Shown: positions 1-59,117, numbered from the stretch's first letter. The stretch is 64,000 bases of DNA from Lingula anatina (GCA_051362555.1 CM120640.1:6138001-6202000); one strand, 5' to 3'. Numbers and translations: made by a program. The notes: generated by a model not told the origin, from the letters alone.

Positions 1-260
1 TTAACACTACAGAAAAAATATTCAACTGTGCTAATGATAACCGTTGAGACAATTTACCAATTCATTAAACATGACTTACATTTATTCTGTCACTGTTTCG
101 TTTTAATAAGTTGGCTTATGAAGTTCTGTTGTTTTGAAATGGTGCAAGAAGAACGAAAATGACAAGCGTAATGCACATGTAATTGTAATATATCATTTTT
201 ACTCGTAAAGAGAAAATGAGTGGCACATTATGTCTCATACCTATATCTTGTCTTGCACAG

Positions 261-1030
261 AGGTCGCTGAGGAGTTCCAGCAAAAAGCTCTCGCCGTGCT
301 GAACCTGGAGGCCAAGCCAACCCACGAGTTCAGCCAAGATGGCGACAAGTACACCCTAAAAACTATCACCGGCACGAAGACAGAAGAGATGACATTCAAA
401 CTGGGGGAGGAGTTTGAACACACTGCCTTTGACGGGAGAACTGGCAAGGTGAGCGCCACACGGAAACTTAATAATGTCTTCCCTTCTTTAAATAAAGACT
501 AGGTGACAGAGTGACATATTCAATTATAAAGAAATATAAAGATTTATAAAGATTTATTAATTTATTTTTTCATTCATTTTGTGTGGTAGAGGCACAAGAT
601 GGAGTACAACCTGGGTGAGTTAGCAGATTGCGACAGCTTCTCAAACACATTTGCCCATTTAATTTTAGGTCTTGTTAACAATGGACGGTGATGTGTTAGT
701 TGAGAAGTGGACGATGAACGACCTTGTTTCCCTCAACAAACGTGTCGTGAGCGGAGATGAATTGACTTATGTAAGTAACATGCCACATTACCAACGTCGA
801 TTTTTCTGGTTCTGACAGTAACATGTTTAAGTAAGGGAAGAGTCGAACAGTTTGGAATAATCTTACCTTTCTCTATGTCAGAGAAACAAATTAAGAAACA
901 CAAAATACGATTTTTAAAACTGACGCTGAGAAGCATGCACGTCACACAAAATATTTAACTAACTATTGTTATTTTTCAGACTTTGACAGCCAAAGACGTC
1001 GTCTGCACAAGAAAATACAACCGCGTGTAG
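261..1030 (+). CDS. Fatty acid-binding protein (iLBP family) gene 1, exons 2-4; exon 1 presumably upstream of the window
   Basis: Exons 261-448, 669-770, 980-1030 with AG/GT sites. Translation includes FKLGEEFEHTAFDGR and TLTAKDVVCTRKYNRV* (R-x-Y ligand motif). Typical FABP exon layout. AATAAA at about 1160. Confidence 0.93.
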
Positions 1031-2799
1031 GGACCATCAGCGCCACGACTTCCTTCAAAAATAGACTTCTTCCTGGGCACAGATCAGACGCTGAGACCCA
1101 GTGACAAACTGCAGAAACTGCTTTTTTTCTTTTCATTTTTGCAATCAGCATCATCGCCGAATAAACACACTCACCTATTACAAACAGCAAAGTGTATAAT
1201 TCCTGGTCGGCCAGTAATCCATAGCTTTCCCTGGCTTTCCTTGGGTGATCAGCTCTGTGGCGTACGTGCAGGACGGGATCACACGGGCTCATGGCAGTGA
1301 CTGTGATAGTTTGCTTCTCTACTTGACAGAAACGGCTTTTTACAGCGCATTTCAGAATAATTTTACACGCGTAAAAAGTCGGTAAGGCACTGGCGGGCAA
1401 CGTTCAGTGATAACACCCCGGCTGCAACTTAAGCAAAAGAAGGTCGTTTTGATACATGCTTCGACACAAAACACGTTAGTATTGGTGATAATGCCGCATT
1501 CGGCGTTATTTCAGTGAAAATATGCGTAACGAATACAATAAAATCTTGGGGTTATCATCAACACGTGCATTGGCGTTTTTAATTTCTCATAGTTTATTTT
1601 CTTTAATGTATCCCATGCTTCTTGACAATTAAAATGCATACATATTATTTGGGCACATTTTTAAGGAAAATATAACAGCTTAGGAAATGTTTTTTTTTTT
1701 TATTTACTGGATAAAGTCATCTTGATTCAAGGCAAAATAGCATTAGCAAAACCACTCGCTCCGAATGTTATGTCGTTTCTTCAAAGAAATGCAGCATATT
1801 CAAGAAATGTTTTGTTATTTACTGGTTCTAAGTAAATCGATTCAAAGGAAGTTAATTGCGGAACCTCTTACCTTAAAAGTTAAACCAGACTGGTTTTCCG
1901 TAAAACAATTGGGGGGGGGGGGTCAATAATCGTGAAACAAAGATAAAGACAGATAAAAAAGCAAGATAAAATAATATTTCAAATGCCCACCACTACTTAA
2001 ATGAAAACACACTCAAACAAAAGAACGTACGGGAAACACGACCCAAGTTTTCTTTGATGTGATATTTCCTCCAATTATAGGCCGACAATGTGTATACCTC
2101 TTCAATGCACGTCACATTTGAACATATTGCCTCTTCATTAGGAATATACATCCGAAGGCTTAAGAGCTGCAACAAAAACTAATTTTTCACAAAGTTTAGT
2201 GGTGGTTGTTCCGATACAGTTCTTCGATTGTTGTTTATCAAAATTGCATCTTTTTTACATCTATTCTTAGTTTCATCCTAAGATCTAATAAACGTTATAT
2301 TAGATCTTAGTTTCATCTTACTTGTTTTATTTTCAATCACACTGCCTATTTGGCTTAATATACTGTATTTGTAAAGCACAGTGATATTTTATGGTAATGA
2401 TTTTTATCATTCTTATTATCATAAAAATAAATAATTTCCCATTTTGTTCCTTTACATCATTTGCTTCCTCCGTTCTTGTCTCAATCCAATGTATTATAAC
2501 GCTATCCGGCGTGCTACAGCATGTGATGACTTTCAAGCCTCCCACAGGTTGCCAGACGTGACACGCAGTTCTTAGTATAGTACGTGCGTCATTACTAATG
2601 TAATGTTATGACTGGTCAACCAACTTCCCGACCTGCAACTTCTGCAACTTGAACAAAATATATCTAAAATATAGCTCTTGCAATTTGAATTTTAATATAA
2701 ATCAATTTCAAAAATTACGATTTCATATGAAAAAAATAATACGAAAGTAAAAAAATGTTAAACATGCCACCCCGTCATGCTTATAATCTATACACAACG

Positions 2800-2800
<1 letters not shown>

Positions 2801-2878
<78 letters not shown>
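2801..2878. repeat. (TA)n microsatellite
   Basis: Uninterrupted TA run. Confidence 0.98.
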
Positions 2879-2886
<8 letters not shown>

Positions 2887-3833
2887 GATGGTAATTACCA
2901 TCTTATCGTAATGGCCGTCAGTAATATATATACTACGTACTTCACTAGATCAATTGGTAGAATTGCATGATATGGTTTGGGAGCATTTCAGCTTATTACT
3001 TTCTATCTCTCTCTTACCGATTTGGCGGAATAGAAGATCAGATAAGTATCCTTTATTAAAATGATCGGGACAAAATTGTTAATTAAAAAAGTAAAATAAT
3101 GTGCTTTTACCATGAAGAGCCAGTCTGTGAACCAGTAGTGATCAGTGTCAGGTCTTAGGCCTCAGAACTGAAAAGGATGATGATGATTATGGTGCTTGAG
3201 AAAATATTAAAATAAGGTTCTCCTCAAATGTTTAAAAGGCATTTGAAGGTTGTCATTCCACCACTACCCAGTGACCTCTACTGATATCTGATGTTCTGAT
3301 TCTGATTCCTGCGCAAAAAAAATATTTGTAAAATAGGGAAAGCTGAGGCATAAAAGAGAAATGTCATTTATTCAAGTTTGTCATGGAGGATATCCCACCA
3401 ATCCCAAGGCACACAATCGTCTCGGGGTGATGACCAGTGTCCAGCATGGGCCAATCTGTCCTCTGCCAAGACGGAGGACACTGGTTACCACAACTACTGC
3501 CCCCCTTCCCCCAGGTATCCGTATCTGAAACAGTTGGGATTTTCGTGCGTGGAGCCTGTGATATGCGTCACGAACTGTTCCACCTACAATGGAGACGAGG
3601 TAGTAGTCTGCCCAGATACCACAGCACCATAGTCATCAGAGGCAGAGATAGCTGTATCAATCTGTCACGATTACTATCTATTTCAGTCCGCCAACGTCCC
3701 GTGATTACCAGACCAACAATCACCGTGCTCTCGTGATACACGGTGGAGCATATAAACCACGTTCACCCCTAAAACGGCCACTAAACAAGTCCAGCAACTC
3801 TACCTTAAACTTTTTCTATTAAACGGTGACAGC

Positions 3834-6151
3834 ATGGAGGCAATCTGTGGAGACTGGATGCTGTGCGGCAGTGACAACCTTACTGCCTACCTGGTCGCTC
3901 TAAGTAAGAAACGATGAATGTATACCTATCTACTTTTATTTATAAGTTCATAGCATGAAGGCAATTTGATTAATCCTCTTAGCTCATGATCAAAGCTCAA
4001 GACTATATAGTTTGCCGATGATAATATTAGACGAGCATTAACTTTTTGAGAGACGAAACAATCACCACTGTGATTAGAAAAAGTACGATTGCATAAAGCG
4101 CCTGGAGTCACTCAAGTCTGCGTTGGAATGAAAAAAAAAACAGAATTTTCTAATGTAGCAAGCTAATGCCAAACATTCTAGTAGGTCCAAGGACATTGTA
4201 TCAAACATATTTTTCGTTGTTTTAAAAATCGTTGCAAATATAATACCATTGATAAATTTTAATACCGCGAGCATAAGGAGCTGCACAGGAATCCTGTTTG
4301 TTCTGACCCCGTAAAACGCTGCATTAACTTTGTTCCGTGTTCTGCGACTGTCATTTATAAGCGCTGTCGAAACAGGATGTCATAATCAAAAAAGTCAAGT
4401 TTTGTTTTTAACCACTGGCATTCTTGTTTTTTGGATATATATAGGATGTGGCGTATGTTGAATAATCTCATATACAGACACTTTGTCAAGTTCTCTTTAT
4501 TGTTTTTGTAATTTTACTCGGGCTTGTACAAATTTATTTTGATGTTAAGACTTCCCTTTTACTAACAAATAGAAATATTCTTTCTAGGAAAAAGAACATG
4601 AGTTTTTGGTTCGTTGCCAAAATTTAATTTTCTTTTCTCCTTTTTTCTTTTTCTTTCTTCCATTCCTTTTTCTTTCTTTCTTCCTTTCTTTTTTGCTTTT
4701 TTCTTGCGTTCATTCATACTATTATTCGCAATCTACGAACCAATTCCTTAAACCATTTTTTTTTTCAACAGATGTGACAGAAGAAAATATTAAGAAGGTG
4801 ACCGATGCCCAGGAAGAGGCGTTTAAGAGCGGTGACACCCCCAAGGTCCAGATCAGCAAGGACGGGGACACGATGACCATCAAGTCACACGCCTGGGGGG
4901 ATAGAGTGACCTCAGCCAAACTTGGTGAAACATTCGAGCACACAGCAATGGACGGCAGGAAGGGAAAGGTATCTACTTTTATCACTCCATGTTAATGTTA
5001 GACTACCAGCTTTCCATACGAATCGTTAAGATACAGTGAGCTTTGAAGTAAACAAATAACCGTATTTATGTAGCCAAATGTTCAAACACGCAACAAAGCT
5101 GGAATTTTGCTCAAAAGTAAATTAAAAATTAGTTCTTCTGACTGAAAAGTGCCATTTATTAAAATGACGAAACGAAATATGAAACGAAATTACAAAATGA
5201 GGCTATAATAAAGCAACAAAAAATTATGCTATCATACGATGGAGCAGAAAAAAGTTGGCAAAGGGGAGAACAAGTGATGAGTGTTCAATTTAAAATGTTA
5301 GGCAGAATTATATTAAAACATTTGTTAAACAACGATAACGCGTTTTAACCTGCCCTTGTGCAGGGTAATCATCACATAGAGGGACGGGAACTTATCTCTG
5401 TCCTCATTGTTGTACAGATCACAGGTAGATATTATGATCTGATAATAGTGATTATGGATTTCTGCATTAATCCAGACAGAGTCATTTGATTAAAGCGTAT
5501 CAGCATGCCGACCATGTGGTATGCGAATGGATCCTTTTATCTGAAACTGTCACCGAGATGGCGAGAGGGGGATAGTGAGAGGGATGGGGTTAGGGAGGGA
5601 GATAAAAAGGACAATAGAAATGATTGCCCGAAAGTTCATCGGTCTTAATATTTATCCGGCCAGAATTTATTGATCGAGAGAGAGATGGAGAGATTCAACA
5701 TATTTCATATTGCATTTTAGCTCACCTACAGCATGGAAGGCAACACTCTCCTGGAAGTGTTTGAGGGCGAGGGCCTCATCTCAATGAACAGGAGATGGAT
5801 CCAGGAAGACAAACTGGTCTACGTAAGTATGCTTCTGTTATAATGCGCGAGAAAAAGGATTCTCTTTTAAGGATGCGACTGACTACTTCATTCTTTTGCA
5901 AATTATTTGCTGTTCCTGCGTTTATACGCTAGGGGCAGTGAAGGATTTGACCATCATTTTATCCAAATACATACGGAATCTTTGATCATACTAATGTCAG
6001 CTAAACATCGTCGAAGCTGCCTCTACTTATTTTATTTTTACTGCCAATAGAGCTTGAAATTTACCGGTATCTATTTCAAATGCTCTTTCATTCATTTCAG
6101 ACGCTGACTGCCAAAGGCATCACAACAACACGCGTGTATAAGAAGCAGTAG
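3834..6151 (+). CDS. Fatty acid-binding protein gene 2, complete, 139 aa
   Basis: Exons 3834-3903, 4772-4968, 5721-5822, 6101-6151 join in frame: MEAICGDWMLCGSDNLTAYLVAL...KLGETFEHTAMDGR...TTTRVYKKQ*. TATAAA at about 3751, AATAAA at about 6508. Confidence 0.93.
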
Positions 6152-7530
6152 TCTTTAGGCCGGTGGCTCCGACTGCATTCTCCCAGTAAATACAGGCTTG
6201 CTAAAATTGCCAGTGTTGACTGCTTTGACCCTAAAAAGGCAAACAATTGACTTCTGAACAACTTCGCTTAGAGACCCGCGTGAACCTAGAGGATGTTTGG
6301 CAATCTGTATCTTTATTACTGGAGAAACTGGGCCCTCAATGGACCCTCAAAATTAGAACTTATTTGGAGCAGCTTGATATAGTTAACGTTACAAATATCT
6401 ATGTTATCGTTGTTTTCATTGCGTAACATTTCGTATGTTTGATAGTCTATGTCTTTTTCTGTCTGTCGTCAAACTAAATGTGATACATACATAGCAAGTT
6501 TAAGGAAAATAAACTACTACAAAGAACATGATGGAGTTATTCACTTAAATATGCTTTCTCTTCATGGGGAGAAATCAGAATTGAAATATTGAATTGAAAG
6601 TAATTTGTCTAAATTAAAAGGTCTGTATTTGAATTTTATATTGTATCTTCACCAAGACAGACAGGGACAGTGATATCACCTTTTTAAAAAACACAGAGAT
6701 TCGGGCTTATAAAAACTTTATTCATACATAACTATTTCCTAAGGTATATGAGTACTTAAAATCAGCATTTATTGATAAAATGAGTGCCGGAGGGGGGGGG
6801 GAGTATTTCAATGCACTCTTCTTTACGTTGGCAGTTTGATGCATGCTTTTGCTTTGAGAAAACAGCACTGAGTCACTATTACGTCAATGTTTTTGACCCA
6901 ACTGATAATGTACCTAGGTCACAATATACAGTCTAGCCAAAAAAATTATTGAATATGGAAGTAGCAATGAAAAGAGTCCGGCAAACGACTCCGCGTTTTG
7001 CCTGCAATATGTCTGACTTGCCTTTTGTGGCCTTATAATCAGAACGGCCCTTTTCCTCCCCCAGTTTCTAAATCCAGGTTGTAAATTAAACAAGTCTTAC
7101 GATTCAGGTGATCAGCTTTTTTTTTTATAAGACAGAAATTAATCTGAAAACCGAAGCAATGTCCTTCTTGAAACTGTTTGTGTGAAAAAGGTCCGGTTTG
7201 GCACTGAGACAAGATGTAAATGATACGTATGGTTGAAGCCACGGCCTTGGCGATCCCTTTATCGATAAAGCAAAATGCCACATCGGCATTTCAATCAAGG
7301 TTGCATAACGATTTCTTCGTAAAAGGAAGATCTTGTGTGTGTTGCTACCAATTAGCATCACAAATCAACCAATCAGAGGCAAGCTTCATAAAATGCAAAA
7401 ACACAACAGTTCACAAACAGTCTATTTGATATCCCAAAAATATTTTGGATAAACTTACATTTTGAAACAAGGAAGAGTGTGAAAGAAATTAAATATCAAT
7501 TTTCAGTGCAATCCCATGTCTAGAGACCAT

Positions 7531-7540
7531 ATATATATAA
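7531..7540 (+). promoter_or_regulatory. TATA box of the polyprotein gene
   Basis: ATATATATAA about 55-60 nt upstream of ATG 7594. A CCAAT box (about 7369) and a C/EBP-like TTGCATAA (7301) lie further upstream. Confidence 0.55.
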
Positions 7541-7593
7541 CGTCGCCTGTTTCAGATAGTATCTACGTCTGATACAGCAGACTACTGTACGCG

Positions 7594-10500
7594 ATGACCG
7601 GGTTTTGGTGCATCGTCGTCTTTGGGGTGATTTTTTCACAAGTAAGAGTATATTTTTGTGAAACCTAGTTTGAAAGCAGCAATTGCCAAAGCACCATTTA
7701 GATCCAAAGAAAACATACAATTAGTGAGATCGTGCGTTACAAGTTCTAAAACGTATCATATTAGCGTTTTGACATACTTTCTGAAATATGCTTTGAAATA
7801 TTTTTACTAAATTTGCATAGAAAGGCACTTATTGATGAATGCTTAATCACACTAAACATTAACTGTTTTCTAGGGAGCATTTGGAGATGGGGTATCTGTG
7901 GAAAGGAAGTAAGTAAGGTTTAATATTTTCTACAGACAAGCTTTGAAAAAGATGATTATGAAATTATATAATCAGAGATACCATTTGTTTATACACCTTA
8001 AACTGCGTTTTTCACGGTTATTTAAAGACATTGTTGACCTCATCTTTTTATCTAGTAAACGACAGGTCAGTGTGACAAGCGAAGGTGTAAGTGTATCTCA
8101 CTCTGGCAGCTCTGGGCCGTATGATTACAGTGTCGGGGGACATGTCAACTTTAAACCCAAAAGCGTTGGTGTGCACGGTTCACTCACACGTAATTTCGAC
8201 AATGGTGGATACGTCGGTGCTAGCGGGTACAGAAATGTAGGACAGGGTGAAAGCAGTGGCGTTGGCGTCCACGGAGGGTACACCTCCCCGTCTGGTTTCA
8301 GAGTGGGTGGGGAGTTGAGACGAGACTCTAATCCTTACGGCAGTTCCACCTCAGGGAGTGCAGAATTTGGGTACGAAAGTAAAGGAGGTACCAGAGTGTC
8401 CGCTTACGGACAGAGAGACTTTCAAACTGGACACACCTCCGCTGGGCTTCGTGTCCGTATACCGTTTGGGTAAGACAGCAGTTCCATGATAATATTTGTC
8501 GCTAAAATAATGTACCAGTCGTGTGTGTGTATGGGTGTGTGTGTGTGTGTGTGTTTTTTTTACTGTGTTACGACAAGTACATTTTTAGCCGATTGCATTT
8601 GAAAAAGTAGAAAAAGCTTGAGTAGGCGATTATCAAACACTATTAGTATATATATATATTTGTTATTTGCTTGAAATAACTGTTTACAGTGCTGTAGGAT
8701 GTAAGTTATCATTATGTTCTTTTTTTGATTTATCAGGCGGAAGAAACGGGACCTGGCAGCTGAAGAAGAGGATCTGGAAGTTTTGAACAGGAGGTAAATA
8801 TGACAAATCAAAAGTTCATGGCAAACGAACATTTTGTTGGAAGAGTAATTACCACAGAAATGTGAAAGTGTAGCGCTCAATCTCAAAATTATAGTCAAAT
8901 CCTGGTCCAAAATCAGCGACTTATCTTCCAGGAAGCGCCAGACATCAGTAGACGCCCGCGCCCGTGTCAATGGAAGACGTGACTACGGTGTTGACGTGGA
9001 CGTGAACAGAAGGCATGGTAACCACCAGTACAGCGTAGGCGGCTCGTATCAACGTAGTGGTCCGTACAGAGGAACTGAGGTACGAGGAGGCTACAGCTAC
9101 ACCAACAGACGTGGCGTTCGTTTTGGCGTCGGAGGTTATCACCGCAGGGATAACTTTGGTGGCAGAGACACAGGAGTCAGGGCAGGAGTGAGCATTCCAT
9201 TTGGGTGAGTCTCTGTCATCTTACTCCTTCATTACTGTATCTTAATCATCCCACATGTAGGCCTAGACTCCGATATAATAGTACGGTATTTTGAGGCGAA
9301 TCATGAAGTAGATGTTAGTCTCTCAACGCACGTACCTGTTCCATTATTTAACATAATCCATGTAAGAATTATGGTATGCGAGGTGAGTTCACATATGACA
9401 TCGCTTAGCTTGGTGTTTCCATATGTAGGTTGAGGGAGCATTTCTAGGACCCCATTTCCAGAGATTAGATCGATCTACTTTAGATCGACCTAACTCCCTG
9501 GGGGTTCACGCTAAATAGCTGTCAGCCGTGCGGACACGAAAGTTAATTACCCCCTTACAACTTGTAGTAGGCGGGACGGACATTTAAGCCGGATTATCTG
9601 ACAGTAATCTAGTGAGACTCCCCGCGGGGATAGATCGATCTAAATGCTCTGGGAATAAAGCCTAGGAGTATAGCTGTCATATATATATGGCTGTGTGTCA
9701 GTGTGCGTGTATCAAACTGTGACGATATAAGCATTTTATACAGTGCATTTGACAAGAAAGAAAATCATTAAAAAACATTGATAAAAGTGTTTTTAAACTA
9801 GAACCTTGTTTGAAGTACAGTTTACTGTTATGGTTTGATGTCAGTTATAAATTTATTCTTTTCGGTTTAAACAGACGGAAGAGGCGAGATTTGGAAGCTG
9901 ATGAAGAGGATCTGAATGTCTTGGAAAGAAGGTAGTCTAAATATAAGGTTTGATGTTAAGAAGCCCATGTCCAAATAGGAATTTGTTAAAGCTGCGACCA
10001 TTCATTTATTAAAAATTATATTTCATAGTAGAAACAAGCGTTAATATGATTTTGTTGAATGACCTCCATGTAGTTTTTAAACGAAATAACCCTTATTAAA
10101 CAAAGAAAATTTGTTTCAAACAATTGACTTATGATAAACATAACATTGAAAAACTGCAGTAAACAGGAGCGTTTTTCGGCTTTCTTCATGGTTATTCAAA
10201 GGCACGGTTGACTTTATACATTATTATTTTTTTATCTAGTAAACGACAGAGCAGTGTAAGTGTTACTCACTCTGGCAGCTCTGGGCCGTATGATTACAGT
10301 GTCGGCGGACATGTCAACTTTAAACCCAAAAGCGTTGGTGTGCACGGTTCACTCACACGTAATTTCGACAATGGTGGCTACGTCGGTGCTAGCGGGTACA
10401 GAAATGTAGGACCGGGTGAGAGCAGCGGCGTTGGCGTCCACGGAGGGTACACCTCCCCGTCTGGTTTCAGAGTGGGTGGGGAGTTGAGACGAGACTCTAA

Positions 10501-10683
10501 TCCTTACGGAAGTTCCACCTCAGGGAGTGCAGAATTTGGATACGAAAGTAAAGGAGGTACCAGAGTGTCCGCTTACGGACAGAGGGACTTTCAAACTGGA
10601 CACACCTCCGCCGGGCTTCGTGTCCGTATACCGTTTGGGTAAGACAGCAGTTCCAAGATTTAGTTATCACGACAATTGTGAAC

Positions 10684-10719
<36 letters not shown>

Positions 10720-13699
10720 GTGTGTTTCACTGTGTTACGACAAGAACATTTTGAGCCGATTGCATTTTAAAAAGTAGAAAAAGCTGAAGTAGCCAATTAT
10801 CGAACATTATTAATTTTTTTAATTTGAACGATAAACTTGCTGGAAATAACTGTGTTTACAGTGCTGTAAGATGTAAGTTATCATTATTCTTTATTTTATT
10901 TATCAGGCGGAAGAAACGGGACCTGGCAGCTGAAGAAGATGACCTGGACGTTTTGGACAGGAGGTAAATATGACAAATCAAAAGTTCATGGCAAACGAAC
11001 ATTTTTTTGAAAGAGTAATTACCACAGACATGTAAAAGTGTAGCGCTCAATCTCAAAATTATAGTCAAATCCTGGTCCAAAAGCAGCGTCTTATCTTCCA
11101 GGAAGCGTCAGACATTAGTAGACGCCCGCGCCCATGTCAATGGAAGACGTGACTACGGTGTTGACGTGGACGTGAACAAAAGGTCTGGTAACCACCAGTA
11201 CAACGTAGGCGGCTCGTATCAGCGTAGTGGTGCGTACAGAGGAACTGAAGTACGAGGAGGCTACAGCTACACCAACAGTCGTGGCGTTCGTTTTGGCGTC
11301 GGAGGTTATCACCGCAGGGATAACTTTGGTGGCAGAGACACAGGAGTCAGGGCAGGAGTGAGCATTCCATTTGGGTGAGTCTCTGTCATCAAACTTCCAT
11401 TACTGTATCTTAATCATCCCACATGTAGGCCTAGACTCCGATATAGTACATGAAGGACGGTATTTTGAGGCGAATCATGAAGTAGAAGTTAGTATCTCAA
11501 GGCACCTGTTTCATTATTTCACATAATATGAATTATGGTATGCAAAGTGAGTTCACATGAGCTTCGTGTTTCCAAATGCAGGTTGAGAGAGCATTTCTAG
11601 GAGTATAGCTGTCACTATGGCTGTGTGTCAGTGTGCGTGTATCAAACTGTGACGATATAAGCATTTTATACAGTGCATTTGACAAGAAAGAAAATCTTTT
11701 TAAAACATTGATAAAAGTGTTTTTAAACTAGAACCTTGTTTGAAGTACAGTTTACTGTTATGATTTGATGTCAGTTATAAGTATATTCTTTTCGGTTTAA
11801 ACAGACGGAAGAAGCGAGATTTGGAAGCTGATGAAGAGGATCTGAATGTCTTGGAAAGAAGGTAGACGTAATATGAAGTTTGATGATAAGAAGCCCATGT
11901 CCAAATAGGAATTTGTTAAAGCTGCAACCATTCATTTATTAAAAATTATATTTTATAGAAGAAACAAACGTTAATATGATTTTGTTGAATGACCTCCATG
12001 TAGTTTTTAAACGAAATCACCCTTATTAAACAAAAAAAAATTTGTTTCAAACAATTGGCTTATGATAAACATAATTTTGAAAAACTGCAGTAAACAGGAG
12101 CGTTTTTCGGCGTTTTTCATGGTTATCCAAAGGCACGGTTGACCTTATACATTATCATCTTTTTATCTAGTAAACGACAGACCAGTGTGACAAGCGAAGG
12201 TGTAAGTGTATCTCACTCTGGCAGCTCTGGGCCGTATGATTACAGCGTCGGCGGACATGTCAACTTTGAACCCAAAAGCGTTGGTGTGCACGGTTCACTC
12301 ACACGCAATCTCGACAATGGTGGCTACGTCGGTGCTAGCGGGTACAGAAATGTAGGACAGGGTGAAAGCAGTGGCGTTGGCGTCCACGGAGGGTACACCT
12401 CCCCGTCTGGTTTCAGAGTGGGTGGGGAGTTGAGACGAGACTCTAATCCTTACGGAAGTTCCACCTCAGGGAGTGCAGAATTTGGATACGAAAGTAAAGG
12501 AGGTACCAGAGTGTCCGCTTACGGACAGAGGGACTTTCAAACTGGACACACCTCCGCCGGGCTTCGTGTCCGTATACCGTTTGGGTAAGACAGCAGTTCC
12601 AAGATTTTACTTGTCGCTATAATTGTGTACCCGAGTGTCTGTGTGTGTGTGTTTCACAGTGTTACGACAAGAAAATTTTGAGCCGATTGCATTTGAAAAA
12701 GTATAAAAAATGCTCTAGTAGCCAATTATTATGTAGGCCCTATGATTATATTTTTTAAAAAATTTGAACGAATTTTTGCTTGAACTTACAGCTGTGATTA
12801 CAGTGTTGTAAAATGTAAGTTATCAATATATTAATTTTTTGGATTTATCAGGCGGAAGAAACGGGATCTGGCAGCTGAAGAAGAGGATCTGGAAGTTTTG
12901 GACAGGAGGTAAATATGCAAAATCCAAATTTCATTGCCAACAGACATTTTTTTTGAAGTTGTCATTGTATATTTGTAATTATTCATTCCTCTCTTTGTTT
13001 TTGTTCAGTGACCTAGTTATTAAAACGATAAAGCTCCGGAGACACAAAAACAATTTTGTTTCAAATAAATAAACCATATTCAGAAGAAATTATAAACAAC
13101 GAGTTAACAGCCACCATTTTTTAAATATGTTTTAACGAAATATAAAGATCACGAGTCAAACCACTTCCATGTAGCACTCTTGATCTCAATCACAAAACTA
13201 TTGTCAAATCCTGGTCCAAAACCAACCTCATCTTCCAGGAAGCGTCAGACATCAGTAGACGCCCGCGTCCGTGGCACTGGAAGACGTGACTACGGTGTTG
13301 ACGTGGACGTGAACAGAAGGTCTGGTAACCACCGGTACAGCGTAGGCGGCTCGTATCAACGTAGTGGTCCGTACAGAGGAACTGAGGTACGAGGAGGCTA
13401 CAGCTACACCAACAGACGTGGCGTTCGTTTTGGCGTCGGAGGTTATCACCGCAGGGATAACTTTGGTGGCAGAGACACAGGAGTCAGGGCAGGAGTGAGC
13501 ATTCCATTTGGGTGAGTCTCTGTCATCAATTTGTATGTAACATTATCGTATGAAACTGCCTAATAATATAAACGTAGAGCAAAGTTAATTGGAAATCGAA
13601 ACAGATCTTGTTTATTTTTTCAAATTTGATTTAAGAGATCGATTACTTTATGTTCCATACATATCTTATTGATATGATTTTCATTTCAGAAAACGGTAA
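7594..13699 (+). CDS. Secreted Gly/Arg-rich polyprotein precursor (807 aa) with six convertase-released, probably amidated peptides; attacin-like antimicrobial candidate
   Basis: Exons 7594-7641, 7874-7908, 8056-8469, 8737-8793, 8932-9204, 9875-9931, 10240-10638, 10907-10963, 11102-11374, 11805-11861, 12171-12584, 12852-12908, 13239-13511, 13690-13699. All have AG/GT sites and total 2424 nt in one frame. Signal peptide MTGFWCIVVFGVIFSQGAFG; ends IPF-GKR*. AATAAA at about 14104. Gene model is strong; function is inferred. Confidence 0.88.
8040..13530 (+). repeat. Three tandem units of about 2 kb (peptide A exon, spacer exon, peptide B exon, spacer exon; last unit lacks the final spacer)
   Basis: Near-identical exons and alignable introns starting at about 8050, 10230 and 12160. 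Confidence 0.95.
9447..9662. mobile_element. MITE of the GATCGATC-containing family, in intron 5 of the polyprotein gene
   Basis: Imperfect TIRs (GGACCCCATTTCCAGAG / CTCTGGGAATAAAGCC). The paralogous intron at about 11593 has the empty site TTTCTAGGAGTA. Related copies at about 19050-19272, 32490-32730, 33923-34157 and a remnant at about 56850-56970. Confidence 0.9.
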
Positions 13700-15694: not shown

Positions 15695-18047
15695 ATGCCG
15701 CTTTGCCGAGTAGAAACCAATGTATCGGGAGATCAGATACCGGCTGACTTCCATGTTAAGCTTACCCAAATACTCTCAAAGGTGCTGGATAAACGAGAAA
15801 AAGTAAGTATTAACAAAACAATTGATAAACTCAGGTTTCATTCTGATGCCTTAAAGCATACATCCCTCGTGAAAAAATATACTTGAGGTTGACAACAGAA
15901 TGTAGGCTTATTTTTGTAAGTATTAATAACGTGCGAATATCATCCCAAAGGGCTGTTATTTTTAAAACTTTCGTTACCAAAATAGGCTAGGTTACTAAAT
16001 ACACAAATATTCCACATCCTATAGTAAGGCATGAATTTAAAAAAAAATTCCAGTGATTTATACTAAAAACCAGATTTATTACTTTTACTTTACCAGAGAA
16101 TTAGAAAAAGTAGAATTCGTGAATATTTTCCGTGAATATTTTTCACTTTTTTGCTTTCTTCATATTGAGAATGAGAGATAATATCCATGGACTTTAAGCC
16201 AATGGCATCGCCTAAATAAGTGAAGGAGATATCTCGGATCTCGTGTGTAAAGTAAACAACTGGGTACCCTATATTTCAGGGTATAGGCTGATATGGCATT
16301 TAATATAACCAGGTTTTATATACTTAGGTTTTAAAGATTGAACGCACAGAAACGGTAGTTTTGGTCTTATCCGTCAACCAAATGATAAAATTTGTCGTAT
16401 GAACTGAAATAGGCTATTTTAGAATATTGAAAAGCAATTATTTACACTAATGTCAATCACATGTACTTTCTCAACTATAAACATTACATGTCCTGCAAGT
16501 TTCAACCTTGAAAATATGGACTGCTGCTCGTATAATATACGTAAAATATACTGACCTAAATTTCCAACGCAACACATACAATTTTGAAATATTTGGTGTA
16601 CATAATATGGGAAATTGGTTTTGAGTCATAATACATCAACTACATCTTAAAAACTCAGAAAGTTGTTTTGATTTTATCGTTTGGGCAGCTCGTTTTGCTT
16701 GATGGGGAGATAATATAACATCTCCCCAACTATATAAATGCCATAATATAAAATTAATAAAGTATGTTAATAAGTGTAACCAAATTAATTAAGAAAATTA
16801 TAAGTAATAACAACAGCTTTAGGAGCAAAAAGTTGGCATAAATAAAATTAAAAGGTCATAAGATGTGAGAGAAGCTCACATCCCCGCCAACCGAGATTGA
16901 CTCCATGCATCGCAGAATCCAGGCTGTGTGTGACGCCAGAGGAAGCCATACTAGGTACTGACTTCGGTGATCCAGAATTGCGCCTTCAGCTGATGCAATG
17001 AACATAAAACCAGGAAAAATCTGTTCTTCATTCCTGACTCTGAAACTGTGTTTTTGATTTGAATCTTTGTTATGTATTGTTAAATTAAACGTAAGATAAT
17101 GATGTGTTGCAATTAACCCAAGCGTTGCGTTGGAAGTTTTGGTCAGTATAACCTCATTAAAGAATAGCTAATGTATAAATGTGCTAAAGCCAGTAAAAGT
17201 TAGCGTTTCGTCAAAGCCGAAAAACGTCTAAAAATCCGATTTGAATTGCGTTCCTTCGTATAAAAAGTCCTAAAAAAACGACAACCACTTTTATTAGTTA
17301 ATGGTCCAATCGAGAATAAGTACATTAGTGACAACATTGCTGTTGCGGCAAAATATAACCTCACTTCTTTTTTTATCATTCCTTTAATTCTTAGTTCTAT
17401 TTTTTAAAATGAACTTTTTTTTAAAATGTGGCCTAACGCAACAATTTACAAGGCGTGTGAGAATAATCCCTTTCCTCTAGTAAGATAAAACGTCCCCTAA
17501 ATCCCATGTATATTTTCAAAGTGTTAAAATATGACAACTAATACAATTAGTCATGTCCAATGGTCCACTCGAGAATAAAAACATGAGAGACGGCTTTGAT
17601 GTTCTGGCAAAATATAGCCTCACTGATTTGTATAGCATTCTTTTTTTCTTTTTTCTACTAAAATTCTTATTGTAGGATATTATAATCATAATGCGGCCCA
17701 ACGCGACAATGTACAAGGACTGTAAAAATGTCCCCATTGCTATAATCAGCATTAAGGCGGCGGGAAGGTTTAATCAAGCTAACAATTCCAAGTACAACAC
17801 AGCAATTGCCAACATTGTGCTCTCTAAGCTCGGAGTTGAGGCTGACAAGTAAGTGCACTGCACCGAGAATCGGTGATCTAATTTACTCAAACGAAACGAG
17901 AGATAAAAATTTTAAGATTATTATCACTGCTAATTCTACTATCAATTTGGGTTATCTTAATTCACTTTCCAAGTAAGACTTCTCATACAAAGCACTTGTT
18001 ATATGGATACGTGCCTCATGTGTCTTCGTTTAGCAATGTCAGCAAAA

Positions 18048-19779: not shown

Positions 19780-20595
19780 GCTTGAGCTCTGCTCGAAAGC
19801 CCTGAAGGAAGAAAGATGATGAAAAATATTTTCAGAAAAACTCCAGAAAAGTTTTAATGAAAGGGTTCAGTAAAACTCCAGAAAATAAAGTTTTTTAAAA
19901 TGAAAATTAAAATGAAATGGTTCTTGTAGAGTTCTTCAGTCAAAATGTCAAAATTTTTCTTTTTGTTAGTCGCTTCATACAATTTTACGGCTTCAGTTCG
20001 CAAACTCCCGCATAGGCATTTCTCTTCTTTTATCCCCGCCCTCTGCTCATCAACTTTCTTTTCCAGCTCAGCGTTTTTCAGCGCGAGATTGGTATTCTCT
20101 TTCATTGCTTCTCGAAGTCGTTGTGATAGCGCTGTAATTTGAAAGCTCGATTCTTTATCTTCCTTTTTGTAGGAACGGTTTTCAGTTTGACGACGTATTT
20201 GAATATTGAGGTAAATGTTCGTCGCTTTGTTGACTTCTGCTTCAGCTGCAGCAAGCTCTCTCTGGGTTCTCATGTAAGTTATCTTGAGATCTGAAAAATA
20301 AAGTTTCTTTTTTTCCGCGAAATTTCAAGCAGATTTCAGTCAACGAGTACTTTCCATCCCCAGTCACATCGGTATACCCATAAACTGAAGATGTTCAGCG
20401 GGGCTGCAACCGCGTTTGCATCTTTTCTCTTTCTCTTCATTCCTTTGAAAACTTTTTTCTTCATTAGAGCATTCTGCAATTGAATTTTTTCCAGCTTCTC
20501 TCTTTAAATGCTGCAGGTCTTCTCTTTCTTCGACGACTAGGCTTTCTTGACAACAAGATCATGCAGAGCAGCACGATGGTAATGGTAGAACAGTC
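19780..20595 (-). pseudogene. Decayed paralog of the coiled-coil membrane gene at 24898-25965
   Basis: MRTQRELAAAEAEVNKAT...AELEKKVDEQRA is almost identical to the intact copy, but there are frameshifts and deletions of the first TM segment, the N-terminus and the proximal promoter. Confidence 0.88.
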
Positions 20596-20954
20596 CTTCT
20601 CTCCGCAAGAATACACATCCAACTCTAATAAGAGCTTACTTATCATGCAGATTTAAAAAAGAAAATGAGTGAATTATTTTTCTGGTCATAAAAAAGAATT
20701 TTTTTATTTTAGTAGGAAGCATCGTCTTCACTTGTAGATCCATGTAGCCAGCCGTATAGTCTGTATATTGTATATCATGTAAATAGTGAGTGTCTTTGAC
20801 CTGCCTGGGGAGTACCATTCCCGACCTTGGCCTTGACTGGTAGACGGCTGATCCTATTGTGTCAACAGAAGTGCTTCTCTGTTGCTACGGTTGCTCGACA
20901 GTAGAATATTAAAAGCCTACAGTCATTCGTTCCCCAAGTTCCAGCAGCTTCACG

Positions 20955-21909
20955 ATGCCACTGTGTAGATTAGAAACCAATCTGTCCAAGGAACAGATTC
21001 CAGAGGACTTCCCCATTAAACTGACAGAAAAGCTTGCCGAGGCAATGAACAGGCCGCAAGATGTAAGGATGATGCCACTGAGGGTGAAAATAATCTATTA
21101 AATACTGTTCAGGATCTAATCTGACTCGAGATGGGAGCGAGGGTTGTCCTTTCAAGTTTTTACGGTTGCAGATTCCTGGGGAGGAGGGGGTAGGGTGTTA
21201 TTGCTTGTACCCTGGATGCCCTAGCTTTTACTAGTAATGGGGTCAGTGCATTCTCCCGTGTTTATTTTGAATTTCTTTACATCCATTTTTTATTTGAGTG
21301 ACGATGCGAGAATTTTGCCATTTTCGGGTACCATGTCCCAGCATTTACTTTGAGGTTTTTAAACGAACAAGTGTTGCTTTGTATAACACATTTATACTAG
21401 TTCAGTAGCTCAATGGTGACATTTTTTTCCAGCAATTTTTTGTTGTAATGCAGCCTAATATGACAATTTACCACGACTTCAAGCAACTCCCTTCTGTCAT
21501 ACTAACCATCAAAGCTGCGGAAAGGTTCAACCCAGATAACAATAAAAAGTACTTTCCCGAAATTGTCAAGTTGTTTCTCTCTCAACTCAAGGTTGAGCCA
21601 GAAAAGTAAGTACATGACAAATACATGTAACAGAATAACGAAACAGACAGAAGCACATTACAAATATAAGTCGCACAAATATTAAAAACGCCAATACAAC
21701 ACACTGTTATAGACAAGAGGGTCGACACACTTCTAAATGTGAATTTATTGTAAAAGATAATTTTACTACATCCGGATATTTTTATATAAAAGAAAACGGC
21801 AGGTGCTTCAATAGGATTCGTTTCCAATTTCAGACTCGTGATCCTGTTTGAAGACGTCTCCCCAGACTTTGTGGGCACTGGGGAAGGACTGATGTCCCAA
21901 ACCATGTAA
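20955..21909 (+). CDS. MIF family protein, copy 2 (118 aa)
   Basis: Exons 20955-21062, 21433-21605, 21834-21909 in frame: MPLCRLETNLSKEQIPEDF...ILFEDVSPDFVGTGEGLMSQTM*. Confidence 0.92.
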
Positions 21910-24897: not shown

Positions 24898-25965
24898 TCA
24901 GCAGGACCCTTGGCTTCTGCCCGAAAGCGCTGAAGGCAGAAAAATGACGACAAAAATTATCAGCAAAACTCCCGAAATCAAAGTTTTCATGAAATGATTC
25001 TTTTCGAGCTCTTCATTCAACACTTCAATCGTTTTCTTCATGTTAGTCTTTTCATACTCTGTCTTGCGCAATTCATCCTCCAGTTTTCCGATTTCAATTC
25101 GCGAACCCCCGTGTAGGCGTTTCTCTTCTCTTATCTCCGCCCTCTGCTCATCAACTTTCTTTTCCAGCTCAGCGTTTTTCAGCGTGAGACCAGTATTCTC
25201 TTTCATTGCTTTGTCGAGGTCGTTTTGGTATCGCTGTAATTTGAAAGCTTGATCCTTTATCATCCTATTGTAGGAACGGTTTTCAGTTTGACGAAGTTTT
25301 TGAATATTGAGGTACATGTCCGTCGCTTTGTTGACTTCTGCCTCAGCTGCAGCAAGCTCCCTCTGGGTTCTTATGTAAGTTATCTCTAGATCTGAATAGA
25401 GTTTCTCTTTTTCCGTGATTTTTTCAAGCAGTTTCCAGTCAACGAGAACCGTCCATCCCAAATGGCAAATCACTATGAACGCAAAAAGGGCGAAAACAAA
25501 TATGAAAGGCATCGGCATACCCATAAATTGAAGATGTTCGGCGGGGGCTGAAACCGCGTTTGCATCTCTTCTTTTTCTCTTTTGCCCTTTGAAAGCTTTC
25601 TTCTTCAGTTGGGCGTTCTGCTGATGAATTTTCCCATTTTCTCTCTTTAAATATTGCAGGTCTTCTTTTTCCTTGACAAGTAGGCTGTTCTCGACAACAA
25701 GGACTTCTTGCTGATCTGCCAGACGTTTGTTTTCTTCCCACTGAATGTTGTTAGTTTGGGTCAGTTGACTGATTTGAAGTTGCAGCCTAGCTATCAAAGA
25801 CGACATGTTTTTGATCATCCAGAGCAGCGCGATGGTAATGGTAGAACAGTCCTCGAGCTGCCCCTTGATGGCTTGCTTTTCATTCGACAAGCGTTCCGTT
25901 TCTTGGCGAAGTTCTAAACCTTCCCTACGCAAGCTGCTCTGGCGTTCAAATGTTGCCTGGGCCAT
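24898..25965 (-). CDS. Intronless coiled-coil protein with an internal and a C-terminal hydrophobic segment (about 355 aa), unknown function
   Basis: 379-codon ORF. Likely start is ACAACATGG at 25965, since the TATA at about 26060-26068 is too close to ATG 26037. E/K/Q/L-rich heptad-like stretches; TM-like PFIFVFALFAFIVICHLGWTVLV and TLISGVLLIIFVVIFLP. Confidence 0.8.
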   Translation of the reverse strand: MAQATFERQSSLRREGLELRQETERLSNEKQAIKGQLEDCSTITIALLWMIKNMSSLIARLQLQISQLTQTNNIQWEENKRLADQQEVLVVENSLLVKEKEDLQYLKRENGKIHQQNAQLKKKAFKGQKRKRRDANAVSAPAEHLQFMGMPMPFIFVFALFAFIVICHLGWTVLVDWKLLEKITEKEKLYSDLEITYIRTQRELAAAEAEVNKATDMYLNIQKLRQTENRSYNRMIKDQAFKLQRYQNDLDKAMKENTGLTLKNAELEKKVDEQRAEIREEKRLHGGSRIEIGKLEDELRKTEYEKTNMKKTIEVLNEELEKNHFMKTLISGVLLIIFVVIFLPSALSGRSQGSC

Positions 25966-26059
25966 GTTGTATTCAGGTTTATCCGAAATTCGAAAAAGAA
26001 CAGGGTAGATAAACTCGTAACTGCTGTCCCTCTGCATTCAAAAAGGAAAATTGTAGGGG

Positions 26060-26107: not shown

Positions 26108-26491
26108 AAATGTTACCGCGCAGTTCCGTTGATGCACTCCAACACGTAGGCCTAAAAACACACTGAAAACACTTATCATATGCATTTAAAAATGAAAATT
26201 GAAAATGATTGAAATTATAAAGTCATTTTCAGAGTTTTTTTATTTATCAGGACGCAACATTTAACAGTGCTTTAAATTTCATCTCAGTGTGTAGTCGGCC
26301 AAGTAAATTATCTTTGACCTGCTGCTAATGCTGCCGGTCATGTGTACGTACCATGCCCGACCTTGACCTTGACCGGCGAACGACTGATCGTTGTGTCACC
26401 AGTCGTGCTTGTTGCTTACATGCTACGGCTGCTCAACAGCAAAATATTGACATTATACAGACGTTCGTTCCATACTTCCAGCAGTCTCACG

Positions 26492-27441
26492 ATGCCACTG
26501 TGTAGATTAGAAACCAATCTGTCCAATGAACAGATTCCAGAGGACTTCCCCATTAAACTGACCGAGATGCTTTCAAAGTTAATGGACAAGCCGAAAAATG
26601 TAAGAATAGTCACCGAGTGATAAACAATATAAATACTGTGAACTGTGTAGGAACGCTTTATAAAGTGGACTTTATCCCACTGGGGAGGGAGGGGTGTGCG
26701 ATTCGTTTAACATGATCATGGAAAATACACATGCCAGTTCTTTCGAACTTACTACGTATGAGTATTTCTGGTACCGTACATGTTGGAGGGGGTGGAGACA
26801 TACTAGTGTATTTGTGCCCTGGCTGCTCGTGGCTATTTTTTTACTTACCCACTTTAAGGTCCTATAGTTTTTCATGTTTTGTAAAATGAAATGATGCTTT
26901 ATCTTAATAAAATATCTGTACTACCCAGTAGTGCAGTAGCTCAATGGCGACTTTTTTTCATTCCAGCGAATTCTTGTCGTAATGCAGCCTAATATGACAA
27001 TTTACCACGACTGCAAGCAACTCCCGTTTGCCATACTTAACATCAAATCGGTGGCAAGGTTCAACCCAGAAAACAATAAAAAGTACTTTCCAGAAATTGT
27101 TAAGTTTCTTCTCGCTGAACTCAAGGTTGAGCCAGAAAAGTAAGTACATGGGACACTCCAGAGTAATAATACAGACAGCAGCACAATAGAAACACAAGAC
27201 ATTTCACACAAATGTTGATAACAACACTTGTATAAATGGAAAAGGGTTAACACCCGTCTAGATGTGAATTTATTGTAAAAGATAAATTAACAACATGTAT
27301 ATCTGAATATATTTGTAAGTAGGAAAAATGGCAGGTGTTACGATAAGACTCGTTTAAAATTTCAGGCTTGAGATCCTGTTGGAAGACATCTCCCCAGACT
27401 TTGTAGGCACTGGGGAAGGACTGCTGTCTCAAACCATGTAA
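26492..27441 (+). CDS. MIF family protein, copy 3 (118 aa)
   Basis: Exons 26492-26599, 26967-27139, 27366-27441 in frame; close paralog of copy 2. Confidence 0.92.
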
Positions 27442-47437: not shown

Positions 47438-49071
47438 CAGGGTTACTATATTACTTAATATGGAATATTATTTTTTGGCGAGTAAATTTTTTACAAAATA
47501 TTTATTTTTTCTCTTACTCTTTAAAATCCAAAACTGAGGTGTCACTCCATGTGTAGCCAGGTGTGGAACCTAATTACTACACAACTCTCGAAACAATTAA
47601 TGCACGCAGTTGCATGTTCTGTAGTCAATTTCTGCCCTTGGATAAAAACGCATGGGTTTGGTCAATCTTTGGAGTGTATTTAGAGAAGCAACAAAGGGAT
47701 CGCCCTGAAACTTGACAGGTACCTTAGAGAAGATATGGTTCGACAGCTATGCAACGCAGCTTACTGTGGGATTCTTGCTCTCGGAGGAAAGGGCCAGAAA
47801 CGGACAGCCATTGCCAAACAATTCAACATTTTTCAGGAACCGTTAGTAAAGTCCTCCAAAAAAATGCTACATCAGGGGCACCTACTCCAATACTTCCACC
47901 AGGTTGTCTGCGTATCACACCAAGAAGACAGGATCGCCTTCTCCTTTGAGTGCTCCGTGCTGGTCGTACAAAGACAACCAGTGTCCTCAGAAAAGAGTGG
48001 CAGAATGTCTTTCAAACGCCCGTTTCAAGGTCCCTCGTGAACAAGAGATAATTGCAAACCGGTTATTTTGCACGAAGACCAGTACGGAAACCACTGTTAA
48101 CAGCAGGTCATACACAGCGACGTCTGCAATGGGCTGGGGACCACGTGCGTTTGCAGTCAAAACACTGGAATCACGTCGTTTTCAGTGATGAGGCCAGATA
48201 TGGGATTTTTGGTGTTGACGGTCGATTCCTTGTCCGCCGACGTGTACGAGAGGCATAAAACGATTGTGTACTGCCTAGGGTGCAAGCAGGGGGTCGTAAC
48301 GTCTCTGTTTGGGGAGCCTTCCATGCCGGTGCCCAGAACCACTTGGTTTTTCTAGGAGGCAACCTCAACCAGGATTCCTACAGAGACATTCTACAGCAAA
48401 CAATGAATCGATTTGTAAGAGTCATCTTCAGGAACAACTTTGTGTGCCAAGACGACTGCGAAACGCCACATCGAGCTAGCAGAATCACTGTTTTTCTTCA
48501 AAACCAATGGGTTCAGCAACTGCCCTGGCCTGCAAACTCCCCAGAAATGAACCCAATTGAAAATCTGTGGGCGGAAGTAACTTACAGAATTAAAAGCTAT
48601 GGTCATCGTCCGGTAAATAATGATGACCCTCGACAGGCAAATATCACTGCCTGGAATGATATCCCCATCCGAACTCTAAAAAACTTGTCACAGTATATGC
48701 CATGCAGGACGAGGGCGCTGCAAGCGGTTGCTGGAGGTCATACCCGCTATTGATGGCTTTTCATGATTTACTGTAATGATTTCTTTGACTGTGTAACATA
48801 TCACTGTCCGGAGGCTATCATTTTCTTTAATATCTTAGCTTAAAGTTAATACTGACATCAAACTGTTGATATGGTTTTCGGGGGTGTTCTTTTCTTTTGA
48901 ATGACATCTTATGTCAGATTTGATATTATTGACCAAAATATCTCACAACAGACGACTTGATATTTTTATCACTCTATGAAATACTTTTTTGATGAATCAA
49001 GTCAATAAATATTTAATCAGCACTCAAAAATAACAATGATAAAAAATATTCCATATTAAGTAGTAACCCTG
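47438..49071 (+). mobile_element. Full-length but inactive Tc1 (DD34E) transposon
   Basis: TA duplication, TIR CAGGGTTACT...TAATATGGAATATT. Transposase motifs WNHVVFSDE, QDD, WPANSPEMNPIENLW and GGHTRY*, broken by frameshifts and a stop at 48256-48258. Confidence 0.93.
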
Positions 49072-58162: not shown

Positions 58163-59117
58163 TGCAAAGGTAAAAATTAGATTCTGGTAATCATTTGCTT
58201 GTTCTGTACTCTATTATTTTCTTTGGTCACAGAATTTTGATGTGTTCAAATGTATCTAAATTTATGATATATTAATTGCTATATTATCTTTCCAATATAT
58301 GCTTAACTTAGAGTGTTGATACATGTATATGAGAACAGTTACTAAGAAGTAAAATGAAAATGTTATTGACATTTTTATATAACATGTAAGCATTCTGATA
58401 GTATATGTTATGATAGCTACATGTAGTTTTTTTACTGTCATCTGCTAGATATTTAAGGGAACATTGTTTATTTATATATATACACTACGTTTGATACTGT
58501 TTACAGGTATTGTGTTAGTGTGATATTTATTCATAATGATTTCTACACAGTAAAAAACATTTGAGTTAAATTTCCTTGTTTATCAACTTTATGTAATAAA
58601 CACAGGCGCATAGCCAGTGATTTCAAGGGGGGGGGGGTCTTTTACTGAAAAAGTGGACCTTTTACCATGAAACTTTCATACATAGATAAAATTTTACCTA
58701 GAAGTGGGGTTCTTACAAACCCCCCCAAACCTCCCTGGCTACAGGCCTGAAACGTGTCGTAAAATAAAAGAATGCTTATGATTGTTTGCCAATGCAATAC
58801 AGCTAGGACTTATCAGTTGCTTCTTGAAATGACCCACAGTTTTTGCTTAAAAAACCTCTGATAAAGGTCAAGTTCTTTCTTTTGCTGATTTGACAAAAAA
58901 CAGTTGCAGAAAACCAGTCTAAGATTATTAACAGTTTATGATTATGGTAGTGGTAAGTTGCATGCCAGGAATGTCTGTCTAATGCATTCTTGGTCATCAT
59001 TTTTGCCAAGTGAAATAATGTAGAAATATCCTTGACATTTTTACTTATTTGTGATTATATGTTTATCATAAAATTTATAATATAATGCTTACGTAAACCT
59101 TTTGTCATTTCAGAACT

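Follow-up and report, generated by a model that had tools for sequence, protein, structure and literature searches.

Glycine-rich antibacterial peptides that form beta-sheets are presented as insect inventions in two reviews (PMC8164593, PMC4874388), and a neopteran origin has been proposed for those of the attacin type, whose precursors usually yield one peptide (PMC4874388). Attacins are reported to be free of cysteine, to contain 14-22% Gly and to carry a net charge of -3 to +10; for a soldier-fly attacin, the same source gives a likeness to outer-membrane proteins (OMPs) together with a model of a trimeric barrel pore, and the protein disrupts Pseudomonas outer-membrane bilayers (PMC10690985). 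Multipeptide precursors are also on record. The beetle coleoptericin precursor is one (PMC4874388), and the hymenoptaecin precursor of the ant Camponotus floridanus, 781 aa long, is described as a signal, a pro-piece and 6-7 Gln-initial Gly-rich domains of ~97-100 aa between basic sites (PMC3415428). Here we describe a real and apparently undescribed gene that is related in kind to precursors of the attacin and hymenoptaecin type and that lies in a 64,000-nucleotide stretch of the genome of the brachiopod Lingula anatina (hereafter the window).

The initial annotation of the window had drawn attention to two coding stretches, A and B, as amphipathic beta-hairpin repeats with an ending like the beta-signal of OMPs. 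These stretches are exons 3 and 5 of a single 14-exon gene (Table 1). Joining the exons at GT-AG sites gives an open frame of 807 aa on the plus strand (7594-13699), which reads, in order, leader, pro-piece, A1, linker 1, B1, linker 2, A2, linker 1, B2, linker 2, A3, linker 1, B3 and Gly-Lys-Arg-stop, that is, three A-linker-B units with six peptides (three A and three B). Peptides and linkers occupy one exon apiece, all joints are phase 2, and between A and B of the first unit lie two introns and, between these, a 57-nt linker exon. The signal peptide was called by eye from the hydrophobic N-terminus. Two single-exon, bacterial-style ORFs (7943-8473 and 8996-9208) were rejected as artefacts of reading into introns. 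The intron between B1 and linker 2 carries an insertion of ~215 nt (9450-9665) that the matching intron of unit 2 lacks; with its imperfect inverted arms (47 nt, 74%; 13 nt, 100%), a short direct repeat seen by eye at its ends, and coverage by partly fitting RNA reads in 4/4 runs, it resembles a MITE that many transcripts contain. A crude and weak scan of 6200-7600 found no NF-kB-like motifs.

Table 1 Features of the peptide-precursor gene (positions in the window)
Feature	Position	Strand	Evidence
TATA-like box (7530) and transcript start (~7575-7577)	7530-7577	+	motif scan; read-end pile-up at 7575-7577 in X4, X7, X8
Exon 1, coding part: start codon, hydrophobic core of predicted signal peptide	7594-7641	+	gene model; GT-AG joint 7641-7874 in 3/4 runs
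Exon 2: predicted signal peptide end, short acidic pro-piece ahead of first R-x-K-R site	7874-7908	+	gene model; joint 7908-8056
Exon 3: peptide A1, predicted mature 8063-8467, 135 aa, Gln...Ile-Pro-Phe, 21% Gly, net +3, no Cys	8056-8469	+	gene model; reads; AF2 10 strands, pLDDT 89 in best model
Exon 4: linker 1; completes amidation-signal Gly, R-K-K-R site, acidic spacer, start of next basic site	8737-8793	+	gene model; joints 8468-8736, 8791-8930
Exon 5: peptide B1, predicted mature 8939-9202, 88 aa, 19% Gly, net +9, no Cys; beta-signal-consensus tail	8932-9204	+	gene model; reads; AF2 6 strands, pLDDT 83 in best model
Exon 6: linker 2, 75% identical to linker 1	9875-9931	+	gene model; joint 9203-9874
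Exon 7: peptide A2, 130 aa	10240-10638	+	gene model; junction type backed by linker 2-to-A joints
Exon 8: linker 1 copy	10907-10963	+	gene model
Exon 9: peptide B2, 88 aa	11102-11374	+	gene model
Exon 10: linker 2 copy	11805-11861	+	gene model
Exon 11: peptide A3, 135 aa	12171-12584	+	gene model; reads
Exon 12: linker 1 copy	12852-12908	+	gene model; joints 12583-12851, 12906-13237
Exon 13: peptide B3, 88 aa	13239-13511	+	gene model; reads
Exon 14, coding part: completes Gly-Lys-Arg-stop, plain amidation signal	13690-13699	+	gene model; GT-AG joint 13510-13689 (2,673 reads in X9, 4 in X5)

Evidence for transcription came from raw RNA runs labelled as the same species, eight of nine being used (X1-X5 and X7-X9, with X6 left out). 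Splice joints were seen for every intron type, the stranded run X4 indicated transcription from the plus strand, and exon depth reached ~2,100 in X4 and 3,000-5,500 in X8 with introns at ~0; coverage of the 3' UTR extended to ~14,500 in X9 and X5. The units are too alike for reads to separate the copies, and exons 7-10 (unit 2) rest on the gene model. Expression was high in X4, X7, X8 and X9, low in X5 (depth ~50, a ~40-fold difference from X4 of the same study) and zero or nearly zero in X1-X3, all from one study: X1 gave 0 reads on exons, and in X9 the count was 45,869 of 11.5 million records, almost all of them falling on this gene. Control of the near-zero signal in study P1 is poor, because the MIF exons that served as expression control had coverage in just one of four runs.

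The reads also revealed variation in the order of the units. Joints from B to linker 1 were supported by 1,714 reads in X8, with B depth ~1.8 times A depth, and joints from A to linker 2 by 354 reads in X4; these unit-order variants among individuals are alleles, paralogues or products of exon skipping, and they argue against a fixed 1:1 pair of A and B. Reads of study P3 (X7, X8 and X9) showed a common shortened form of linker 1 (8737-8793) and altered signal-peptide codons and were 90-99% alike, indicating that the animals concerned have a form of their own, be it an allele, a paralogue or a population variant. Among the genomic copies, amino-acid changes outnumber silent ones in B (11 vs 2) and not in A (5 vs ~11; Fisher p 0.008), these being small counts tallied by hand from pairwise output, and the changes in B are concentrated in its first half, with none in the last 31 residues. 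Variable unit order and the amino-acid changes in the first half of B would fit an immune effector.

The surrounding sequence is animal DNA, in which spliced genes of the fatty-acid-binding-protein (FABP)-like and MIF types flank the peptide gene. Just upstream (230-6150) are exons of two tandem FABP-like genes (Lipocalin family, E 1e-4 and 0.03), and downstream (15695-17850, 21448-21610 and 26318-26617) are tandem MIF-family genes, the first with a spliced joint at 15802-17676 in X9. The MIF genes lend the neighbourhood an immune flavour, a functional link to the peptide gene being putative at most. Opposite the MIF genes, on the minus strand, lie an intronless 379-aa frame (24901-26037) without a Pfam match, which by eye resembles a coiled coil and contains two hydrophobic segments, and an interrupted copy of it (19854-20820). 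Further along are a frameshifted remnant of a Tc1/mariner-like transposase (47684-48750; DDE_3, E 3e-10) and one uninterrupted frame, 1,634 aa or longer (59097-64000), for a DEAH11-like RNA helicase with RRM and KH domains, which is free of introns across 4.9 kb and runs off the window in a Cys-rich region.

All six peptides start with Gln directly after Lys-Arg, with an R-x-K/R-R basic site ahead of each, and all six end in Ile-Pro-Phe followed by Gly and basic residues. In the secretory pathway, such sites predict furin-type cleavage, trimming, amidation of the Phe and an N-terminal pyroglutamate, and from the sequence we predict cleavage of the furin type, trimming, amidation at Phe-Gly and Gln cyclisation for A and B. 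It had been proposed that processing leaves Phe as the last residue; since Phe is followed by Gly and basic residues in 6/6 copies, the predicted end is instead a Phe-amide and not a free Phe. Peptide A is 130-135 aa long with a net charge of +1 to +4, peptide B 88 aa with +7 to +10, and both contain 19-21% Gly and 0 Cys; the linker spacers, on exons of their own, are acidic and 13 aa long. The two peptides share their first (Q-x-S-V) and last (V-x-I-P-F) strands, I-P-F-G terminates both, and the last 31 residues of B are invariant across its three copies.

In these respects the locus resembles the insect systems. A and B lie inside the attacin ranges (0 Cys, 19-21% Gly, +1 to +10), and the pre-pro-peptide plan with basic cleavage sites is present, in the form of a hydrophobic N-terminus and R-x-K/R-R sites, its splicing confirmed and its cleavage predicted. 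The likeness to attacin, diptericin and gloverin (PF03769, PF10793), as PMC10690985, PMC8164593 and PMC4874388 describe them, takes in the lack of Cys, 14-22% Gly, pre-pro processing and a predicted antiparallel amphipathic sheet like porin walls. To the ant hymenoptaecin precursor, as portrayed in PMC3415428, the likeness lies in Gln-initial Gly-rich tandem peptides between basic sites (6/6 here), in length (781 vs 807 aa) and in variable repeat number and sequence. However, the ant precursor is an insect product with one repeated domain, a single exon and an EAEP spacer (PMC3415428), whereas the Lingula gene has two alternating peptide types, separate exons, acidic spacers of 13 aa and an amidation signal that follows each peptide, and lacks both the EAEP spacer and the single-exon repeat region. 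Given the different spacer and exon plan, the two peptide types and the amidation, and with no Pfam match, we file the gene in neither the attacin nor the hymenoptaecin family.

Only one true sequence relative was found, XP_013386378 (LOC106155895), an uncharacterised Lingula anatina protein that is 98% identical to A over 121 residues and includes linker 1 and part of B. It is a 186-aa partial model with neither signal peptide, repeats nor functional name; the gene is thus mis-modelled and unnamed in RefSeq. The word-indexed search for relatives gave 1 of 75 candidates in its "A near" form, 1 of 162 in its "B longer" form and 0 of 770 in its "A longer" form. HMMER over 1.84 billion sequences returned six matches, the Lingula protein and five long proteins; the three of these five that were inspected proved to be tandem-repeat proteins, of the VCBS type or another, and were discarded as additive artefacts. 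Neither the word-indexed searches nor HMMER over the 1.84 billion sequences matched A or B to an insect protein, and hymenoptaecin similarity was absent from their matches. Searched with the six peptides and the precursor, Pfam gave no attacin/diptericin (PF03769) or gloverin (PF10793) match at E up to 10, a range in which the HMMER filters remove most matches above E 0.1; matches to YadA_anchor (E 0.05-0.4), SprB and Reo_sigmaC fell below the cut-off. These searches found no sequence relative in bacteria, OMPs included, and a sequence search of the PDB found nothing below E 0.9 (one match at E 0.93). A pattern scan of 185,579 genomes gave 8 matches; the single one that passed runs antisense to a mutL-like gene and was rejected as chance. 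As there is no Pfam or HMMER match, common descent with attacins is not shown and convergence is as likely. In the ESM Atlas, the nearest named clusters to A and B are Attacin_C and gloverin, at 0.93-0.94 and with 158-175 of 256 features shared, the recognition values of 1605 and 1772 being below the mark of 2300. Scores as high as or higher than those of these clusters (0.92-0.94) are reached by unnamed giant-virus and phage proteins of 70-100 aa, which possibly belong to a wider class of small Gly-rich beta-meander proteins. With recognition below the mark and viral clusters equally close, this neighbourhood is weak evidence.

The amphipathic beta-hairpin character ascribed to the peptides is supported. 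Every A and B segment quoted in the initial annotation is present where it was placed, the beta-periodicity of the hydrophobic alternation was matched by only 8 (A) and 3 (B) of 10,000 shuffles, and adjacent hydrophobic pairs number 1 in A (expected 7.8) and 0 in B (expected 5.2). The units of about 30 aa hold as a structural period of one beta-hairpin (AF2 strands start at A49, A79 and A111) and are weak as sequence repeats: among 21 unit pairs, the best were matched by 18, 33 and 34 of 2,000 shuffles, uncorrected, and many were at chance. AF2, run on single sequences with no alignment, folded A as a 10-strand sheet (pLDDT 89, 63, 45, 38 and 37 in five models) and B as a 6-strand sheet (83, 80, 49, 42 and 37), pLDDT exceeding 70 in 1/5 and 2/5 models, respectively. 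Along its entire length the A model superimposes on portions of outer-membrane barrels (Z 13.2 for FhaC, 12.3 for OmpU, and 10.4 for BtuB with an rmsd of 1.6 over 130 residues), and the B model has similar matches with Z up to 9.3. The predicted sheets resemble parts of porin walls, and the A model is an open sheet and not a closed barrel, since its rmsd is lowest to wide barrels and reaches 5.7-6.7 to 12-strand barrels (BrkA, KdgM and NanC). Outer-membrane barrels also dominate the Foldseek list, in which no match reached E up to 0.001.

The likeness to OMPs proposed for these peptides is correct but already known for attacins. With bacterial barrels (porins, TonB-dependent receptors and the YadA anchor), A and B share the hairpin period, the alternation and a fold match over the whole model; they differ in being open partial sheets, cationic, encoded by an intron-containing animal gene and less than half as rich in large hydrophobic residues. 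The ILFWM content of 7.4% (A) and 4.5% (B) lies well below the 15-24% of six E. coli OMPs, an argument against a stable transmembrane barrel. Prediction of an A-plus-B complex scored 0.30 and 0.31 against a mark of 0.34, with controls not folded, and is taken as evidence neither for nor against pairing. The B model also matches the R&R chitin-binding domain (Z 7.0, rmsd 2.6 over 71 residues), and the fold matches further include lipovitellin and an insect pigment-binding sheet; because lipovitellin and the chitin-binding domain match too, the shared sheet fold shows no function.

The proposed beta-signal-like ending is a partial match, fair in B and poor in A. The consensus polar-x-G-x-x-hydrophobic-x-hydrophobic/aromatic (10.1101/2021.10.29.466387) is fitted in full by B (R-A-G-V-S-I-P-F), whereas A lacks the Gly at -6. 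The motif with a final aromatic occurs in B, not in A, and in 2/18 real E. coli OMPs; the stricter form G-x-x-aromatic-x-aromatic, given in PMC13067283, occurs in neither peptide and in 6/18 real OMPs. On a tail profile built from 18 E. coli K-12 OMPs of our own choice, with leave-one-out scores for these and only a light penalty for unseen Pro, B scored 11.1, above 14/18 OMPs, and A scored 3.0, above 6/18 and below two internal 10-mers of A itself. Both tails have Pro at -2, and none of the 18 OMPs has Pro in its last 8 residues; both have Ile at -3, where 14/18 have an aromatic residue.

Because architecture, chemistry and fold all parallel those of the insect Gly-rich antibacterial peptides, we lean, on this analogy and at slightly better than an even call, towards secreted attacin-like peptides that would disrupt Gram-negative outer membranes as amphipathic sheets. 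The precursor would leave the cell and yield, on cleavage, six Gly-rich peptides that contain no Cys and are capped by pyroglutamate and Phe-amide, with the acidic spacers masking charge until processing and the tandem units multiplying the peptide dose per transcript. The cationic peptides, probably unfolded in water, would bind LPS and fold there, A as an open 10-strand and B as a 6-strand amphipathic sheet, whose Val/Tyr/Phe face may go on or into the outer membrane. Edge-to-edge pairing through the shared first and last strands could then produce paired sheets or loose barrels that permeabilise it. A structural or mucus protein, which would self-assemble as beta-sheets of extended form or attach to the chitin of setae, pedicle cuticle, periostracum, burrow mucus or egg coat, its caps merely protecting the ends, would account equally well for expression that is very high in some samples and absent from others, a tissue product fitting as well as an induced one, and for Gly/Tyr/Val-rich sheets of low hydrophobicity. 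We nevertheless consider it unlikely: the chitin-binding match of B is within background for such searches, and small capped peptides released from acidic spacers are the pattern of bioactive peptides. In addition, work on the Lingula shell proteome assigns Gly-rich shell proteins to collagens, and the string IPFG/SIPF is absent from the text of its supplement, outside which sequences may lie (PMC4595640). The lipovitellin and pigment-binding matches would suit another secreted role, as a lipid or pigment carrier, an antifouling or deterrent peptide or a signal, with the amphipathic sheet directed at a non-bacterial target. Pyroglutamate and amide caps and basic sites are typical also of neuropeptides and deterrent peptides, but amidated neuropeptides are far shorter than 88-135 residues; no family match was found, both the cationic charge of B and its attacin/gloverin neighbours in the embedding suggest a bacterial target, and such a role seems to us improbable.

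A more specific antibacterial alternative is that the peptides, B above all, offer an OMP-like last strand to strand 1 of BamA, as darobactin and L-pyocins do, and block OMP assembly or get inserted as false substrates; we judge this improbable. In its favour, B fits the consensus, which would occur by chance at ~0.3% for its composition, scores high on the E. coli profile, and keeps its last 31 residues unchanged, with I-P-F-G ending both peptides. The predicted amide does not exclude binding, because an L-pyocin, coming from the cell's exterior, binds BamA strand 1 with an internal His taking the place of the aromatic residue and so needs no terminal aromatic carboxylate (PMC13463100). The idea is also kept alive by the report that attacin shuts off OMP synthesis without entering the cell (PMC8164593, PMC4874388), which stress on the BAM complex could explain. 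Weighing against it are the missing Gly of A, whose tail is not its best OMP-like strand, the Pro and the non-aromatic Ile in both tails, the failure of the stricter form in both peptides, AF2 last strands that stop before the final I-P-F residues, and the fact that any amphipathic Gly-rich strand with a final Phe resembles the motif. The likeness to darobactin and L-type pyocins is an amphipathic strand at the C-terminus that bears an aromatic residue, with B fitting the loose consensus; those agents come from bacteria, rely on a rigid macrocycle or a lectin docking domain and are known from solved BamA complexes (PMC13067283, PMC13463100), whereas A and B have no docking domain, carry Pro at -2 and a predicted amide, and are known here from sequence and models. 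A combined form, in which B docks its last strand on BamA, jamming it or being threaded in as a false substrate, and A/B modules pair via shared edge strands into barrels of variable size, is likewise a long shot. If true, it would make the gene an animal-encoded counterpart of darobactin and L-pyocins, would extend attacin-like immunity to Lophotrochozoa, and would offer, in BamA docking, a mechanism for the shut-off of OMP synthesis by attacin from outside.

A literature search gave no title on brachiopod attacin-like peptides or on a link between attacin and BamA, and a survey of the Lingula immune genome might mention the gene. The gene yields two short, synthesisable peptides and is expressed very highly in some samples. 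As B is a fair match to the beta-signal and A a poor one, the pair constitutes a natural test of BAM-directed as against LPS/membrane-only action of attacin-like peptides, a question that dates from the report that attacin blocks OMP synthesis. More broadly, a brachiopod precursor that matches the insect peptides in chemistry and in multipeptide plan and has no detectable sequence kinship to them would mean either a much older origin of such peptides or convergence on an OMP-like sheet.
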